Assembly (NCBI GenBank): GCA_030821775.1 | Contig: GCA_030821775.1_4700.1 | DNA from: a phage | DNA: 44,039 nucleotides | Reading direction: 5' to 3' (one strand) | Part shown: positions 9,552 to 22,620 of the stretch, in pieces | How positions within the stretch are numbered: the first letter of the stretch is position 1 | Layout of the letters: each line of letters starts with the position of its first letter | Program-made: the position numbers and the translations under genes | The notes under the pieces: generated by a model | The model's database searches: none | Seen by the model: only the letters and a program-made list of their open reading frames with translations | What the model was told of the DNA's origin: nothing

Positions 9552-9989
9552 TTATTCGACGTGACTCCACGCCTTGCGACTTCTAACCTTGTTAATCAAA
9601 TCTTTAGAGACACCTAGATTTTCTGCTAATGTCTTTGCAGATAGACTACAAGAACGTATGTACTTAACCTTATCAACATCTAACTTCTGGCTAGACCTTT
9701 TGGTTCTAATAGAAACATCAATCATGTTCTGGCTACGAGAACCCCAGCTTAAGTGATCAGGGTTACAGTACATCTTATTGTCGCAAGAATGAAGTACATC
9801 TTTTAAATCAGACTTGCCATGAAACACTTCACAGCTAACTCGGTGTACTGTTTCATTTCTACCTCCACCTGTAGCTATGTTTCCATAGCCATGAGAGCCA
9901 ACAGACTTCTGCCATATCCAGCACCCGTTACTGTCAACTCCCACGTTATCCTTGATCTTCTCTATGAGTGCATCGCGGCTTAGTCTCAT
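9552..9989 (-). CDS. HNH homing endonuclease
   Basis: 145-aa ORF with the canonical HNH_3-type pattern (GCWIW...GYG...HR...C.N..C.NPDHL). Confidence 0.8.
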   Translation of the reverse strand: MRLSRDALIEKIKDNVGVDSNGCWIWQKSVGSHGYGNIATGGGRNETVHRVSCEVFHGKSDLKDVLHSCDNKMYCNPDHLSWGSRSQNMIDVSIRTKRSSQKLDVDKVKYIRSCSLSAKTLAENLGVSKDLINKVRSRKAWSHVE

Positions 9990-9994
9990 TTAAC

Positions 9995-10369
9995 TCAAAA
10001 TTCCTCCTCTTCGCTTACCTGAACTTCCGGTGCAGCTACTTCTTCTACTGCCTGAGCTTCAGCTTCTTCAGCAGCCTTAACTTCTTTCACCGGCTTACCA
10101 GCAGCAATCCAATCCAGATACTCAGCTACGATATTAGCCTTACCGATCTGAGCTTTGTCAGCCTGCTCAGGGAAGCAAGCACGAGCGAACTCCAGACCAG
10201 CAGCGAAGTTACCCATGCTGTCAATCTTAGCCTGAGCTCCTTCACGAGTATCATAAGCCTTAGTGCCAGCTACCAGTTTGTTGGCTTCATCGACGATAAC
10301 GAAAGACTCAACGGATACCAGATCAGCACCTTTAACAACACGGTTTACGATAGTTTCGATAGTGAACAT
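9995..10369 (-). CDS. Hypothetical protein with acidic C-terminal tail ending in Phe
   Basis: Track ORF 9995..10399; probable start at the ATG at 10369 (AAGGAG SD). C-terminus ...VQVSEEEEF resembles the acidic aromatic tails of SSB-type proteins. Confidence 0.5.
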   Translation of the reverse strand: MFTIETIVNRVVKGADLVSVESFVIVDEANKLVAGTKAYDTREGAQAKIDSMGNFAAGLEFARACFPEQADKAQIGKANIVAEYLDWIAAGKPVKEVKAAEEAEAQAVEEVAAPEVQVSEEEEF

Positions 10370-10423
10370 ATTTAAATTCTCCTTTGTTAATTGTGGCATT
10401 ATCGCCGATTAAAATTCTCCCTT

Positions 10424-12165: not shown

Positions 12166-12183
12166 CTATAGTGTCACCTAAAT
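12166..12183 (-). promoter_or_regulatory. SP6-type phage promoter
   Basis: Plus CTATAGTGTCACCTAAAT, exact consensus, between DNA polymerase stop and the next gene. Confidence 0.8.
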
Positions 12184-12223: not shown

Positions 12224-14797
12224 TTAGTGAGTCTCTTTCCAGCTTGCGCCAATCTTATATTCACCTGCCATCGGACAGCGCATCTTAAGATACTGACCAG
12301 CCCAAGTCATGGCGTCGGCAATGATATGCCCTGCACGGTGATAACGACGCTGGCAATGCAATACACCAGCATCAGCATCAACGCTAACGAGATTTGCAGC
12401 AGACCACATACGTCCCTCAGAATCCACATGAACACGTTTCTCCTCTGCATCGAACACTGCTTTCACAGCAGCCTTCTCTGTTTCAAATCCTTCTAAGGTG
12501 AAAGGTAGGTCATAGTTAAGATACAAGACCTCCTCTTCAGGGACTTCCATCTGTATTTCATCGTGCACGTTAGCTACACCACAAGGGTTTCCCATAGCAT
12601 CCAAGGCTACACCCTCCTTGCGCATCACTGCAAATGCCTTGACCAGTGCGTATTTCATACACAAAGAGCCAGTCATCTGGAGCAATACGTTAAGCATAGT
12701 GTGTTCTTTAAGTTCACCACCGGACATACGGATGCGACCCCAATGCCCATCAGGTGCTTGCAGGTAGCCAAACTTGTTACCTTGTGCGATAACATTCTCG
12801 CGAAGACGTGCAAGAGACGGTAGTTCAATCTCGAATCTTGCCACAACTTCCTTCATTTCATCCTCAGTGACACCGCATACTGCTGCAAGGTTAGCTATAC
12901 CAGAGCCATAGAGGAAGGCATATATAAACGTCTTCGCCATGTCACGCTTAGGAAGACCAGCCTTCATCTGGTTATGCGTATGGATGTCACCATGAAGTAC
13001 AATCTCTTGGTATTCGGGGTCATTCATGAAGTGAGACAGTACACGCAGTTCAAGACCTGCACCATCACAACCAAGGATTAGCTTGCCTTTCCCTGCTATG
13101 AATAAATCACGTAGAGGATACAAGCCACGGGCAGGAATATTAACCACGTTGCGATGACGCATACGGAACGTAGAAGTGCCAATACTAATAGCAACAGCTG
13201 GCACACGCCACTCTCCGTCATCTTTGTCAGACGTAGGCCAACATCCATACCTCGCATAGTATTGCTGCGCATTGATTCCTAGCTCCTTATTAAATGCTAC
13301 AGGTATAAGGCCGCGACACTTTCGTACACCAGCCTGCGAGGGCCACGCCCCCTTCTGATTGAAGGCTTCAACGTCACCACGGTTGAGGATCTGACCACGA
13401 CGGGATACGAGTATGTACCATGCAGCGATACCCAAGCACCAATCAGGGACTGTTTTACCTTCACGTGTGGCTCTTTCTTGCCATAAAGTGATGGACTTCT
13501 CATTTATCTTACCACTCCACGGCTTAGGTAATACACCATGTTCATCAATGTAGGCCTGTTCTGTATCATTAAACTCAACACCTCTCCATCCGAACCCATA
13601 AAGCACTTGTTTAACAGTCTCACGGTTTCCCAAGGGAATGTCTTCAAACGTGACGGGAGAGTAAGCGCCAATGTGCTTGATGCTAGGTGTGTCATTCTTG
13701 TTACCACGGAGGTGAGGGAAGTCTTTCTTGACAGTAGCAGACCAATCTCCAGACTTAGTGGTGACAGCCCAAACCGTCTGCCGATCTCCGCGCCGTTCGG
13801 CATGGATAAAAGCCTCGCTAGACAACGTGACTCCAATTCCGTGAAGTCTACTATACTCATTTGCTTTATCAACTTGCGCCTCCTTCTCTTGAGCTTTGAA
13901 TGGTTTAGACTTGATACGCATAGGCATGTGTGGACGAAAGGCTGCGACTGTCTCGTCAATCTTGGCGTCCAGTTCTTCGCATCGCGCTAACGCCTTGTCG
14001 ATGTCCAGACGGAACCCGCGTTCGGCCTGACGGCTCATCTCCAGCGCCACAATGGACTCCATGTGGAAGGCTGTCTCAATGCCCAAGCCAGTGCGTTTAT
14101 TCACGCCACGGCGTTTGTGTTCCATCCATTCCCCGTTAAAGAGCCAGAGGAACAGGTCACGACCGATTGCCACGTCCTCACGTACACGGTGAACCATGTG
14201 GTCAGTTAGTTTAGACCAGTCCTCGTTCTCCGGTTTATAGCGGCCTATACGGATGCCGTGCGCCTCAATTGAGTGAGGGGCAACGTTACCCATACCTTTG
14301 GCGTATGCTTGCGGAGGGAGGCGTCTATCGGGGTTTAACAGGCGGCTCATCACCAGCGTGTCCATGACTCGCACAGGACACAGGTCGGCACGAAGCCTGC
14401 CCTTGCCGCGCTTCTCGGTGTAGTTAAAGCCTTTCCATATAGTAGGGAATGCTTTCTCAAAGAGAAGCCCGTCATACCCTAGGAAGTTCTGTGACACGAT
14501 AGCTTCACAGTGCTTCAGGAAGTTAACACCGTCAACCAAGTCACCGTCTTGGTGGCCTTCCCATTCCTTCATACGTTCTCTTGCTTCATGGTCACGCATC
14601 TCATATGGGTCAAAGAAGAGAAACTCCTCGGTAGTAAGCAAGTCCATGCAGCAAATGATATGCACATCTTCACGGTGTCCATATCGGATAGCATCAAGGA
14701 GGCCTTTACTTTCGGCGTCCATGACGAGGATGCGGCCTTCTGCCTCCTTCTTCCAATCAATAATCTTCATACATTGCCTCTGTTTCGTAGTAGTCAT
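12224..14797 (-). CDS. DNA polymerase (family A, T7 gp5-like)
   Basis: 857-aa ORF in the expected position after primase/helicase; true start may be the ATG at 14770 (GAGG SD). Confidence 0.85.
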   Translation of the reverse strand: MTTTKQRQCMKIIDWKKEAEGRILVMDAESKGLLDAIRYGHREDVHIICCMDLLTTEEFLFFDPYEMRDHEARERMKEWEGHQDGDLVDGVNFLKHCEAIVSQNFLGYDGLLFEKAFPTIWKGFNYTEKRGKGRLRADLCPVRVMDTLVMSRLLNPDRRLPPQAYAKGMGNVAPHSIEAHGIRIGRYKPENEDWSKLTDHMVHRVREDVAIGRDLFLWLFNGEWMEHKRRGVNKRTGLGIETAFHMESIVALEMSRQAERGFRLDIDKALARCEELDAKIDETVAAFRPHMPMRIKSKPFKAQEKEAQVDKANEYSRLHGIGVTLSSEAFIHAERRGDRQTVWAVTTKSGDWSATVKKDFPHLRGNKNDTPSIKHIGAYSPVTFEDIPLGNRETVKQVLYGFGWRGVEFNDTEQAYIDEHGVLPKPWSGKINEKSITLWQERATREGKTVPDWCLGIAAWYILVSRRGQILNRGDVEAFNQKGAWPSQAGVRKCRGLIPVAFNKELGINAQQYYARYGCWPTSDKDDGEWRVPAVAISIGTSTFRMRHRNVVNIPARGLYPLRDLFIAGKGKLILGCDGAGLELRVLSHFMNDPEYQEIVLHGDIHTHNQMKAGLPKRDMAKTFIYAFLYGSGIANLAAVCGVTEDEMKEVVARFEIELPSLARLRENVIAQGNKFGYLQAPDGHWGRIRMSGGELKEHTMLNVLLQMTGSLCMKYALVKAFAVMRKEGVALDAMGNPCGVANVHDEIQMEVPEEEVLYLNYDLPFTLEGFETEKAAVKAVFDAEEKRVHVDSEGRMWSAANLVSVDADAGVLHCQRRYHRAGHIIADAMTWAGQYLKMRCPMAGEYKIGASWKETH

Positions 14798-14864
14798 CTG
14801 AACGTTCGGGTTTTGGATTCATTGAGTCATAGTAGTCCCAATCAGAATCATAATCACGTGGCAT
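14757..14864 (-). CDS. Small acidic Asp/Tyr-rich ORF (35 aa)
   Basis: Hand-translated MPRDYDSDWDYYDSMNPKPERSDDYYETEAMYEDY with GGAGG SD; stop overlaps the probable DNA polymerase start. Below the track size cutoff. Confidence 0.3.
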   Translation of the reverse strand: MPRDYDSDWDYYDSMNPKPERSDDYYETEAMYEDY

Positions 14865-14894
14865 AATGCACCTCCAATCAATATGATAAAAGGC

Positions 14895-14912
14895 TGTCCA
14901 ACACGTTGGACA
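14895..14912. repeat. Conserved palindrome, copy P2 (TGTCCAACACGTTGGACA)
   Basis: Perfect 18-bp palindrome with complementary AAGG/CCTT flanks, in the gap upstream of the DNA polymerase gene. Confidence 0.8.
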
Positions 14913-14921
14913 ACCCTTGAC

Positions 14922-16098: not shown

Positions 16099-18090
16099 CT
16101 AGAACTCCTGCTCTTCTTCGAAGTTACCTTGTTCTATAGTGTCCCCTAAATCAGCAGGCACCTCTTGCTGCTTAGGTACACCTGTATCAAAGCTCTTGGT
16201 TCGTGCTTGTGGTTCCCTCAATCTACCGGTAGCAAGGTCTCCTTTAAGCATAACCTTAGTTCCTGTGAAGATACCTTGGTCACGGTCTTTGACACATGAG
16301 ATGTACGTGGTAGTCCTTTCATCAAGCGTTTCAGCTCTTGTGTTACGCTCAATCCCCAATGCGTAAGATGCCCAGAATCCGATAGCTCCTGAGCCTCGGA
16401 AGTCAGAAAGGATAACCTCGCCACCTTCCTCGTGTTGGGTGCGGTTCCCCGCAGGACGTGTAAGGTGTGATACAAGGAATATAGTAACTGGGTGTCGGTC
16501 TTTGATAGTACCAATCCGCTTGACGCATTCATCAAGTGCACCAACCTTCCCACCATATGCTCTTTCATCTAATTTAATCCCAGTTAAGTTATCAATAAAG
16601 ATATTCTGAATCCCCATAGCTTCAAACTCTAAGCAGGTCTGCTCAATCTTCTCCATTGAGTAGTCACCTTCGAGGTCAGCTACAAAGAACTTACCCGTAT
16701 CAGCCACGTAGTCGATAGCTTCAGCCGCTTCCTCATCGGTATAGTCCAGCACCTCGCGGTAGCCATCCTCTTGCGGGTCGTTGGTTGGCGGCAACTCAAT
16801 GCGCTTATCAATCCACTTCCCGATGAATGCACGGGCAACCTTCTTGGTTGGGTCTTCTGTAGAGATAATGCCTACAGACTCGCCGTGCTCTTCGATGAGG
16901 TGCTTAACCACTTCACGAAGGAACTCAGTCTTACCTACACCGGAGCCAGCACCGACGATGATTAGCTGGTGCTTACGGATACCAAGCGTTACCTTGTTCA
17001 GCTTAGGCCAAGGCCACGACAGCCCTTCTTCTGGACGTGCCTGCTTGAGTTCGTCACGCATAGACGCAACGGACTTAATCTGGCTACCGAAGACTTCCTC
17101 AGAAGACTTGGCATTAAACCAAGCATCGACAAACTCTTTGGCCTTACCCGCCATCAAAGACTTGTTAGCATCCTTGCAACCACTTGGATACTCAAGGATG
17201 TAGGATTTGCCGGGAAACAGGCGAGCCGCTTGTTGGTTCTGCTTCTGCCCTACCTCGTCGCCATCGAATCCCCAGATAATCTTCTTGAATTGGGCGATGT
17301 GTTCACGGTTCTGCACAATCTCTTCAAGGCAAGATTCACCTTTGTTAACAGACCACACATGGTAAGGTTGCCCTTCCCACTTAGTACCCTTGGCAGAATC
17401 AAGGAGCATTTGCTGGGCTGCTAATGCATCCAGTTCACCACCCACGATAAGCAAGATATCTTTTCTTCTTCCCTTGTCCAACGTGTTGGACAGGGTATTC
17501 ATACCGAAAAGATCTTGTGTACCAAAGAGTTTACCTAGGTGTCCGAACTTAAAATCCTTCGGCAACGTCCGGCATTTTGCTCCAACAAGCACCCCCTTTT
17601 CATATCGTGGATAATAGTGACGGTTGACTCTTCCCTCTTCATCGTGTCCAACGCGCACATCGTACATTGCTGCGATGTCACCTCGAATGTGACGGGATAC
17701 AAGGTTCTTACGCTTAAGCGTGAGGAACCATTCAACATCAAGTTTCCACTCTGTTTCTTGGTCTGCCCTTTCTTGCTCATTCATAACCTCCCAACGGTCT
17801 TTCATACGCATACCACCAAGGGCGATGGCGCGTAGTTTAGGGTCGCTTATCTTCCCTTCTTTCTCCATCTCTTTGAATTGAGAAGGTGTGTATTTGATGT
17901 TGCCGGTAATAGGCAACTCGGTTATTTCGATGCCACCTTCCGGCTTATGGTAATAAGGTCTGCCATTATCATGGAAGTGACCACGGTTACAGTAGCCAGC
18001 ACCATCCTCGAATATCATAAGGTGGTTGCCTGATTTATCGTGTCCATTCTTCTGGCATTGAGGGCACGGAATGTTATTAATAATAGCCAT
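16099..18090 (-). CDS. DNA primase/helicase (T7 gp4-like)
   Basis: 663-aa ORF with an N-terminal Cys4 zinc ribbon (CPQC...C..GH) and a Walker A P-loop (GAGSGVGKTE) in the C-terminal helicase half. Confidence 0.9.
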   Translation of the reverse strand: MAIINNIPCPQCQKNGHDKSGNHLMIFEDGAGYCNRGHFHDNGRPYYHKPEGGIEITELPITGNIKYTPSQFKEMEKEGKISDPKLRAIALGGMRMKDRWEVMNEQERADQETEWKLDVEWFLTLKRKNLVSRHIRGDIAAMYDVRVGHDEEGRVNRHYYPRYEKGVLVGAKCRTLPKDFKFGHLGKLFGTQDLFGMNTLSNTLDKGRRKDILLIVGGELDALAAQQMLLDSAKGTKWEGQPYHVWSVNKGESCLEEIVQNREHIAQFKKIIWGFDGDEVGQKQNQQAARLFPGKSYILEYPSGCKDANKSLMAGKAKEFVDAWFNAKSSEEVFGSQIKSVASMRDELKQARPEEGLSWPWPKLNKVTLGIRKHQLIIVGAGSGVGKTEFLREVVKHLIEEHGESVGIISTEDPTKKVARAFIGKWIDKRIELPPTNDPQEDGYREVLDYTDEEAAEAIDYVADTGKFFVADLEGDYSMEKIEQTCLEFEAMGIQNIFIDNLTGIKLDERAYGGKVGALDECVKRIGTIKDRHPVTIFLVSHLTRPAGNRTQHEEGGEVILSDFRGSGAIGFWASYALGIERNTRAETLDERTTTYISCVKDRDQGIFTGTKVMLKGDLATGRLREPQARTKSFDTGVPKQQEVPADLGDTIEQGNFEEEQEF
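16134..16151 (-). promoter_or_regulatory. SP6-type phage promoter inside the 3' end of the primase/helicase gene
   Basis: Plus CTATAGTGTCCCCTAAAT located within the last ~17 codons of the gene. Confidence 0.7.
17475..17492. repeat. Conserved palindrome, copy P4, inside the primase/helicase coding sequence
   Basis: Perfect palindrome TGTCCAACGTGTTGGACA; encodes ...TLSNTLDKG... about 200 codons into the gene. Confidence 0.8.
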
Positions 18091-22290: not shown

Positions 22291-22620
22291 TTACTCTTCC
22301 TCTTCGTCTTCATACCAAACTACACTGCTATTATTTGGCACATCATTATAAAGCGCCTCATAAATGCGAGCCTGTAGAATCTTGGTTACGTCCTTAGTGT
22401 CAGAAATCAAGCCAGCATCCTCGAATTCGGTATCAATACCGTCGGCTGCCATCACAGTAAAGATTTCATGATAATAGTGAGGTACCTTGCCGTCTACAAC
22501 CTCATGCAGTGCATCAGAATAATCATCATCTTCACGGATACCATCGTATTGAATGCGTTCATTGAATGCTTCAACAGTTGCAGCCAGAAGTTCATAATAA
22601 GCGTTTGCATCACGTTTCAT
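22291..22620 (-). CDS. ocr: Ocr-like DNA-mimic anti-restriction protein (T7 gp0.3 homolog)
   Basis: 109-aa highly acidic ORF with GAGGA SD. The core ERIQYDGIREDDD...VPHYYHEIFTVMAADGIDTEFEDAGLISDTKDVTKILQARIYEAL aligns closely with T7 Ocr as I recall it; acidic C-terminal tail. Confidence 0.8.
   Translation of the reverse strand: MKRDANAYYELLAATVEAFNERIQYDGIREDDDYSDALHEVVDGKVPHYYHEIFTVMAADGIDTEFEDAGLISDTKDVTKILQARIYEALYNDVPNNSSVVWYEDEEEE

Follow-up and report, generated by a model that had tools for sequence, protein, structure and literature searches.

A 35-codon reading frame before the DNA polymerase gene of a K1E-like phage is conserved as an acidic, aromatic peptide

In a stretch of phage DNA of 44,039 nucleotides (NCBI GenBank assembly GCA_030821775.1, contig GCA_030821775.1_4700.1), which at its full length is called the window below, a 35-codon micro-open reading frame (micro-ORF) precedes the DNA polymerase gene and overlaps its start. 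The genome is that of a K1E/K1-5-like podovirus (Vectrevirus, SP6 supergroup), of which the window shows the reverse complement. Comparison with relatives indicates that the micro-ORF is very probably a real, translated protein-coding gene, and the aligned sequences show that purifying selection acts on the amino acids of its N-terminal core, (aromatic)-D-S-D-W-D-Y-x-D. The micro-ORF itself is already known: it is gene 11.5 of phage K1E, with annotations that go back to the K1E genome and an entry in PHROGs. Our addition is quantitative proof that the peptide, beyond the reading frame, is under selection, together with a separation of the peptide-constrained part, the DSDWDY core, from the ribosome-binding site of the polymerase gene, which is read in another frame.

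The features at this locus are as follows.
14757..14864, minus strand: micro-ORF, 35 codons plus TGA (ORF listing, phrog_15473 match, K1E gene 11.5 and conservation)
14869..14875, minus strand: Shine-Dalgarno (SD) sequence of the micro-ORF, GGAGGTG, 4 nucleotides (nt) before the ATG at 14864-14862
14826..14852, minus strand: conserved core Y-D-S-D-W-D-Y-Y-D, codons 5-13 (invariant columns; no gene overlap)
12224..14770, minus strand: DNA polymerase (family A, 848 amino acids (aa), phrog_17), start ATG at 14770
14777..14781, minus strand: SD sequence of the polymerase gene, AGAGG, 6 nt before its ATG and inside micro-ORF codons 28-30 (T-E-A)
14757..14770, minus strand: 14-nt overlap ATGAAGATTATTGA, from the polymerase start codon to the micro-ORF stop codon (from the sequence)

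An earlier note on this DNA had described a 35-codon ORF with a strong SD sequence whose end overlaps the likely polymerase start, and both points were borne out by these coordinates. The product is MPRDYDSDWDYYDSMNPKPERSDDYYETEAMYEDY (35 aa, from an ATG, 14864→14757 in the ORF listing), encoded on the minus strand like all genes in that part of the window. Its Tyr content was as the note had it, about 20 percent (7/35), whereas Asp and Glu together make up 12/35 residues (34 %) rather than some 40 percent; there is one Trp, and the net charge is about -9. Within the conserved core, Asp alternates with aromatic or small residues (Tyr, Ser, Trp). Tryptic peptides of the product include DYDSDWDYYDSMNPKPER and SDDYYETEAMYEDY. 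The stop codon, TGA at 14759-14757, falls within the polymerase gene and thus creates the 14-nt overlap. The polymerase N-terminus MKIIDWKK at ATG 14770 is the annotated start in fTuEco01, ACG-C91 and K1E KY435490. Polymerase starts differ among GenBank records, some of which take an in-frame ATG 27 nt upstream (14797; 857 aa, MTTTKQRQCMKII...). As judged from the sequence, this longer start is an annotation artefact; it has no SD sequence and is not conserved. In records that use it, the micro-ORF seems to sit 'under' the polymerase (window 14771-14797).

A 901-bp query around the micro-ORF matched 91 phage records, mainly Escherichia phages and Vectrevirus, at 80-95 % identity. With the peptide as the query, tblastn returned 78 phage records. 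In 14 of these the identity was ≥99 %, while the DNA flanking the micro-ORF in those relatives was typically only about 85-92 % identical. The fTuEco01 peptide (QVW53741.1) is 100 % identical to that of the window, and unannotated identical copies are present in many Vectrevirus genomes. In GenBank, fTuEco01 and 101117UKE2 list the micro-ORF as a hypothetical protein, and another K1E record and ACG-C91 omit it. The homologue in the K1E RefSeq record NC_007637 is gene 11.5 (PK1Ep18, YP_424984.1), and the UAB_Phi78 genome paper lists ORF18 as 'Gp11.5 [K1E]', function unknown (PMC4837284). The peptide matched phrog_15473 (function unknown) with an E-value of 8.3e-22 and 78 bits, residues 1-35 aligning to profile positions 1-35 of 35. 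Besides this full-length match, it has the D-S-D-W core near the N-terminus and the length range (29-36 aa) of that family, as well as its position: it follows the gp11 hairpin as the first cistron and lies upstream of the polymerase, as family members do whether or not a cassette is inserted. The databases searched record no function for the phrog_15473 family, and the literature searched held no functional data for gp11.5, SP6 gp13 or K1-5 gp12. Searches of Pfam, NCBIfam and PDB sequences with the peptide gave no match except a chance one to kexin (PDB, E 0.22).

The evidence for selection comes from a comparison set of 40 fetched loci plus the window. An intact homologue with an SD sequence was present in 27 sequences of this set, which comprise 16 different peptides encoded by 23 different DNA sequences; the SD sequence was GGAGG except in the Klebsiella-like and PP1 forms, which have GAGGA. 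Escherichia, Salmonella, Klebsiella-like, Pectobacterium and Lelliottia phages all have homologues, of 29-36 aa; examples are those of Klebsiella-like contigs (MRIEWDSDWDYYDRFQGKKRPFNEEFDDYDN), of Pectobacterium phage PP1 (MPHHYDSDWDYYDSLKPKHPQEDECDDEN) and of Lelliottia phage phD2B (MPHNFDSDWNYQDRNQPKRRPLNEEDYYEE). Residues D6, S7, D8, W9 and D13 were invariant in 14/14 diverse family members. Even where the sequence diverges, the family keeps its composition, with about 30-36 % Asp/Glu and about 14-26 % aromatic residues.

Selection was assessed by Nei-Gojobori counts, in which the core was taken as 10 codons (5-14) in clade representatives and the non-overlapping region as codons 2-26. In core codons 5-14, the proportion of synonymous differences (pS) was 0.81 and that of non-synonymous differences (pN) 0.15. 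Against the Pectobacterium phage PP1 homologue, the core carried 4 synonymous changes and no non-synonymous ones. Over codons 2-26, the ratio of non-synonymous to synonymous substitution rates (dN/dS) was about 0.1-0.2 wherever dS was not saturated. In the true frame, amino-acid identity was 58 % at 63 % nucleotide identity, compared with 38 %, and stops, in the two other frames. The earlier note had proposed asking whether the peptide or only the frame is conserved in relatives, and had named a lack of amino-acid-level conservation as evidence against a functional product; the conserved true frame, with pN well below pS, answers in favour of the peptide. It is this conservation, and not length, that sets the micro-ORF beyond chance, as 72 ORFs of at least 25 aa lie within 6 kb. 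The selection result supports adding the peptide to the many Vectrevirus records in which it is not annotated.

When 1.84 billion proteins were searched exhaustively with a profile hidden Markov model, the motif appeared in free-standing micro-proteins of 31-36 aa and, apart from these, only in one unrelated repeat protein of 473 aa. The latter, P0073 of the representative-protein library, is the sole match to the family profile outside the micro-proteins (E 2.5e-4); it is K/R-rich and has three copies of a ~60-aa repeat, each with EDYDSDWNY[VI]GQATK, and the match is probably convergent. Divergent metagenomic members of the family keep the synteny helicase-gp10-gp10.5-gp11-peptide-polymerase, with overlaps of 4 nt or 14 nt.

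The slot between gp11 and the polymerase is modular. The peptide adjoins the polymerase in the window, fTuEco01 and others, whereas a 72-aa Cys-rich gene 12 separates the two in K1E (NC_007637), UAB_Phi78, CrRp3 and others, and an HNH homing endonuclease does so in Sem3, LL11 and L021. In K1-5 and SP6 the slot is filled by a protein of 50-53 aa (phrog_31436) with another N-terminus and the same C-terminus. In L022-24 the slot is empty, and the same hairpin and GGAGGT directly drive the polymerase. The polymerase start is thus a hot-spot of cassette insertion, with the Cys-rich (CxC...CxxC; phrog_12821) or HNH gene placed exactly between the micro-ORF and the polymerase in the following relatives.
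L005 995-1213, L018 1296-1514 and L030 1286-1504: 72-aa Cys-rich cassette (phrog_12821)
L006 1571-2056 and L007 1529-2008: HNH homing endonuclease cassette

Each insertion restores the embedded SD sequence and the overlapping start, and the start of gene 12, MK[AT]IK, resembles that of the polymerase, MK[ST]ID. Every slot gene has within its frame an SD sequence (GAGG, GGAG or GAGGAGG), placed 6-10 nt upstream of the ATG that follows, and an overlap of 14 nt or 4 nt with an embedded SD sequence was found at all slot junctions examined. As read from the overlapping frames, the C-terminal E-T-E-A-M-Y-E-D-Y of the peptide is largely the downstream SD sequence, spacer, ATG and first codons seen in another frame, and the C-terminal third of the micro-ORF also serves to initiate translation of the gene that follows. 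Because the C-terminus encodes these polymerase signals, the N-terminal core alone gives unconfounded evidence of peptide function. Translational coupling to the polymerase is plausible. The local RNA fold at the polymerase start was no better than that of shuffled sequences (z = 0.35), which gives no support to coupling by the unmasking of a structured start, so any coupling would proceed by termination and re-initiation.

To explain these observations we lean, tentatively and at somewhat less than an even chance, towards a disordered acidic/aromatic decoy that acts in trans and also feeds ribosomes to the polymerase. The product would be an intrinsically disordered peptide with a net charge of about -9, whose core, if extended, would have carboxylates on one face and aromatic residues on the other owing to the alternation of Asp with Tyr or Trp. 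Such a peptide could act as a decoy for a basic, aromatic-lined surface that binds nucleic acids or acidic tails. The most likely target would be the phage's own replication machinery, encoded in the same operon, and the acidic tails of T7 gp2.5 and gp4 would serve as the model. As a secondary effect, ribosomes that finish the micro-ORF would stop 11 nt past the polymerase AUG and could re-initiate there, which would tie polymerase synthesis to micro-ORF translation. Taken by itself, the trans-acting acidic decoy is possible but somewhat doubtful, and a target in the phage replisome is unlikely. If the decoy were real, it would be among the smallest known trans-acting regulators of replisomes or DNA-mimic type, and an easy synthetic-peptide reagent; the hypothesis is testable and ties the peptide to the network of acidic-tail interactions around which T7-type replisomes are organised.

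Two AlphaFold2 models predicted the peptide to be disordered, with a predicted local distance difference test score (pLDDT) of 30-44 and no secondary structure. Several points weigh against the decoy. When the peptide was joined to the polymerase through (GGGGS)8 (24 sequences, paired), the polymerase reached a predicted template-modelling score of 0.76, while the peptide stayed at pLDDT 30-38 and did not dock. Likewise, in a (GGGGS)8 fusion to the 268-aa phrog_862 OB-fold protein, which resembles a single-stranded DNA-binding protein (SSB) (52 sequences), the core had a pLDDT of about 90 and the peptide 36-44, again without docking. Both are weak negatives, as linker fusions for which no coordinates were returned and which do not capture fuzzy electrostatic binding. 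Furthermore, family members end in different residues (Y, F, C, N, E, Q), no larger replication protein had the motif as its tail in the profile search, and the likeness to the T7 tails could be one of low complexity and composition. The gene is naturally dispensable, being absent from L022-24 and having a different N-terminal module in K1-5 and SP6, and no significant RNA structure sequesters the polymerase start. Whether the gene can be deleted is of practical interest, since K1E/K1-5/SP6-like phages are used in therapy and engineering.

Two related ideas were rejected. The peptide as the detached tail of a larger protein does not accord with the profile search, which gave micro-proteins and the one unrelated 473-aa protein only. 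A C-terminal aromatic residue that mimics the SSB/gp2.5 tip is at odds with a last residue that is not conserved and that, in Vectrevirus, is dictated by polymerase codons 3-4.

Our second choice after the decoy, and a doubtful one, is a host-directed accessory peptide that serves anti-defence or host takeover by inhibiting a host nuclease, defence sensor, protease or ssDNA-binding factor, in which case its place beside the polymerase would reflect middle-gene timing. Small T7 proteins encoded around gene 5 do hit host targets, namely Lon (gp4.5), H-NS (gp5.5) and RecBCD (gp5.9). The patchy distribution of the micro-ORF would fit such a role, as would its location in a hot-swap slot shared with the HNH, Cys-rich gp12 and long-form gp12/gp13 cassettes, its absence from L022-24 with no apparent replacement, and the failure of AlphaFold to dock it on the phage polymerase or the SSB-like protein. 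However, its position as the cistron right before the polymerase operon is strict across genera, the phage already has an Ocr-like DNA mimic, and the peptide matched no PADLOC or anti-defence family, although no search aimed at these was made.

Less likely still is a free-standing mimic of ssDNA or of an acidic tail, in which the alternation of Asp with Tyr or Trp in Y-D-S-D-W-D-Y-Y-D would imitate the phosphate-base alternation of ssDNA, so that the peptide would block the cleft for ssDNA, or the receptor for acidic tails, either on a replication protein or on a host defence or repair factor that senses ssDNA. If this were true, the peptide would regulate the traffic of replisome proteins in trans, and its synthesis would keep pace with that of the polymerase.

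It is quite improbable that the micro-ORF encodes a cis-acting arrest leader peptide of the TnaC/SecM type, in which W9, D13 and a Pro ~8-12 residues later would pause the ribosome and tune the downstream gene. Amino-acid conservation of a very short ORF that is translationally linked to the next gene is a hallmark of such leaders, W9 and D13 are invariant, and a P-x-P or Pro is semi-conserved downstream; the spacing of 4 between W9 and D13 is also that between W12 and D16 of TnaC. Yet the conserved block lies at the extreme N-terminus and the distance from the Trp to the stop varies over 20-27 residues. In addition, there is no significant mRNA structure (z = 0.35) for a stalled ribosome to remodel, the ORF is kept before three different downstream genes, and relatives express the polymerase without a leader.

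The earlier note had left room for an ORF that serves only as an upstream coupling element, merely bringing ribosomes from a strong SD sequence to the polymerase start with a peptide that is irrelevant. The 14-nt overlap, the polymerase SD sequence within the ORF and the takeover of the hairpin and strong SD sequence that directly drive the polymerase in L022-24 are all in line with this, and polymerase initiation signals explain the C-terminal conservation. They do not explain the low pN relative to pS, and the purely synonymous divergence from PP1, in the non-overlapping core, nor a composition that is conserved across genera, and the ORF is also kept upstream of non-polymerase genes (K1E gene 12, HNH endonuclease). 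Hence, of what that note proposed, a functional peptide is supported by the amino-acid conservation, while coupling as the only role is highly improbable. A chance ORF or annotation noise that is never translated, for which one could cite the abundance of short ORFs and the missing annotation in several GenBank records, has a negligible probability given the conserved peptide, the consensus SD sequence in each homologue and the stops in both other frames; the pS/pN result for the core essentially excludes this and the coupling-only alternative.

With regard to transcription, the window has 12 SP6-type promoters (ATTTAGGNGACACTATAG) on its minus strand. The elements that frame the micro-ORF are listed here together with the further copies of the hairpin.
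16134..16151, minus strand: nearest upstream SP6-type promoter, ATTTAGGGGACACTATAG (promoter scan)
14890..14917, minus strand: conserved RNA hairpin of 12 bp, with a loop of 4 nt, that follows the gp11 stop (14922) and precedes the SD sequence of the micro-ORF
6570, 10456, 14895, 16065, 17475, 18288, 18459, 19733, 23650 and 37227, transcribed strand minus: 18-nt hairpin cores

The next SP6-type promoter downstream is at 12183, just beyond the polymerase stop. As there is no promoter between 16134 and 12183, the micro-ORF and the polymerase are on one transcript that is read through the hairpin, which lies ~30 nt upstream of the micro-ORF, the first cistron after it. The hairpin core, TGTCCAAC-NN-GTTGGACA, has 10 copies in the window against 0.24 expected by chance. 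Three copies (18288, 18459 and 10456) lie 0-14 nt upstream of SP6-type promoters, one (23650) precedes a sigma70-like promoter, three (14895, 16065 and 37227) precede SD-plus-ATG sites, and two are within ORFs, namely 17475 in the primase-helicase gene and 19733 in an 872-aa ORF. Across 24 distinct relatives, 99.7 % of the cells in the alignment of hairpin 14917-14890 were paired and 5/12 pairs showed double-sided compensatory changes; one invariant U·G pair is workable on the sense strand only. The covariation and this sense-strand-only pair identify the hairpin as an RNA element. A search of Rfam with the hairpin region gave no match. Since the polymerase downstream has no promoter of its own, the hairpin is not a strong terminator, and it could be an element of RNA processing, stability or attenuation. 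It may merit more attention than the micro-ORF.

Two further observations concern neighbouring genes. The gp10 homologue (227 aa, K1E gene 10/SP6 gp11 family; about 16027-15350, minus strand) is broken up by three frameshifts and runs through three reading frames (in tblastn, frames 1, 3, 2, 1), while in relatives it is a single intact ORF; it is either a pseudogene or the result of homopolymer or assembly errors in this sequence. In the replication block downstream of the polymerase, a 145-aa HNH endonuclease (PF13392, E 3.5e-7) is encoded at 9552-9989 on the minus strand.

Among known systems, the closest is K1E gp11.5, which has 31/35 residues identical to the window peptide and the same place before the polymerase operon. 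The two loci differ in that K1E (NC_007637) has the 72-aa Cys-rich gene 12 between gene 11.5 and the polymerase, whereas the window peptide adjoins the polymerase directly. The phrog_31436 proteins K1-5 gp12 (50 aa) and SP6 gp13 (53 aa) share the slot, hairpin and SD sequence of the micro-ORF as well as a C-terminal ...PDY..ETE.MYE[DN]Y that overlaps the polymerase start, and they give secondary phrog_15473 matches across their last 18 residues. Unlike the window peptide, they have a helix-prone N-terminal module, MTKFTMQDLIKLRDEIE..., without DSDWD. A natural chimera between the two types exists (P0010), and the C-terminal likeness may, on the evidence of the overlapping frames, be positional rather than functional.

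A comparison with DNA mimics is less close. T7 Ocr, T7 gp5.9 and SPO1 Gp44 are small, highly acidic phage proteins for which occupation of DNA-binding sites has been proposed or shown (PMC8208478). Of these, Ocr and gp5.9 (52-117 aa) fold as dimers and carry carboxylates in a pattern, in contrast to the 35-aa, predicted disordered window peptide. The PHROG, Pfam/NCBIfam and PDB searches gave no sequence match of the peptide to DNA-mimic proteins, and neither model showed a stable fold. The window does encode an Ocr-like anti-restriction protein (phrog_2568, E 1.5e-50; 22291-22620, minus strand) that ends ...WYEDEEEE, and this gene already fills the classic role of a DNA mimic.

The acidic tails of the T7 SSB, gp2.5, and primase-helicase, gp4, provide the model for the decoy. 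They compete with ssDNA for the SSB cleft, and a terminal Phe is essential in both proteins. They bind the polymerase and the ssDNA cleft of the SSB (PMC10359462). Like the window peptide, these tails are disordered and strongly acidic with embedded Trp, Phe or Tyr and come from the replication gene block, and local strings are alike (PRDEESWDEDD and STDWSND in T7, PRDYDSDWDYYD in the window peptide). The window peptide differs from them in being a free-standing ORF that is not joined to an SSB or helicase, the C-terminal aromatic residue is not conserved in the micro-protein family, and there is no detectable homology beyond composition. In the window, acidic tails with a final aromatic residue recur on several replication-block proteins, among them a 134-aa phrog_4429 protein (9995-10399, minus strand), which ends ...VSEEEEF, and the primase-helicase (16099-18090, minus strand), which ends ...NFEEEQEF.

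Lastly, the arrangement of the two genes resembles that of the translationally coupled, overlapping cistrons of T7-like phages, with a stop/start overlap, the downstream SD sequence within the upstream ORF and a single transcript. It differs from these in that the upstream ORF is itself under protein-level selection, and coupling is therefore not the whole story.

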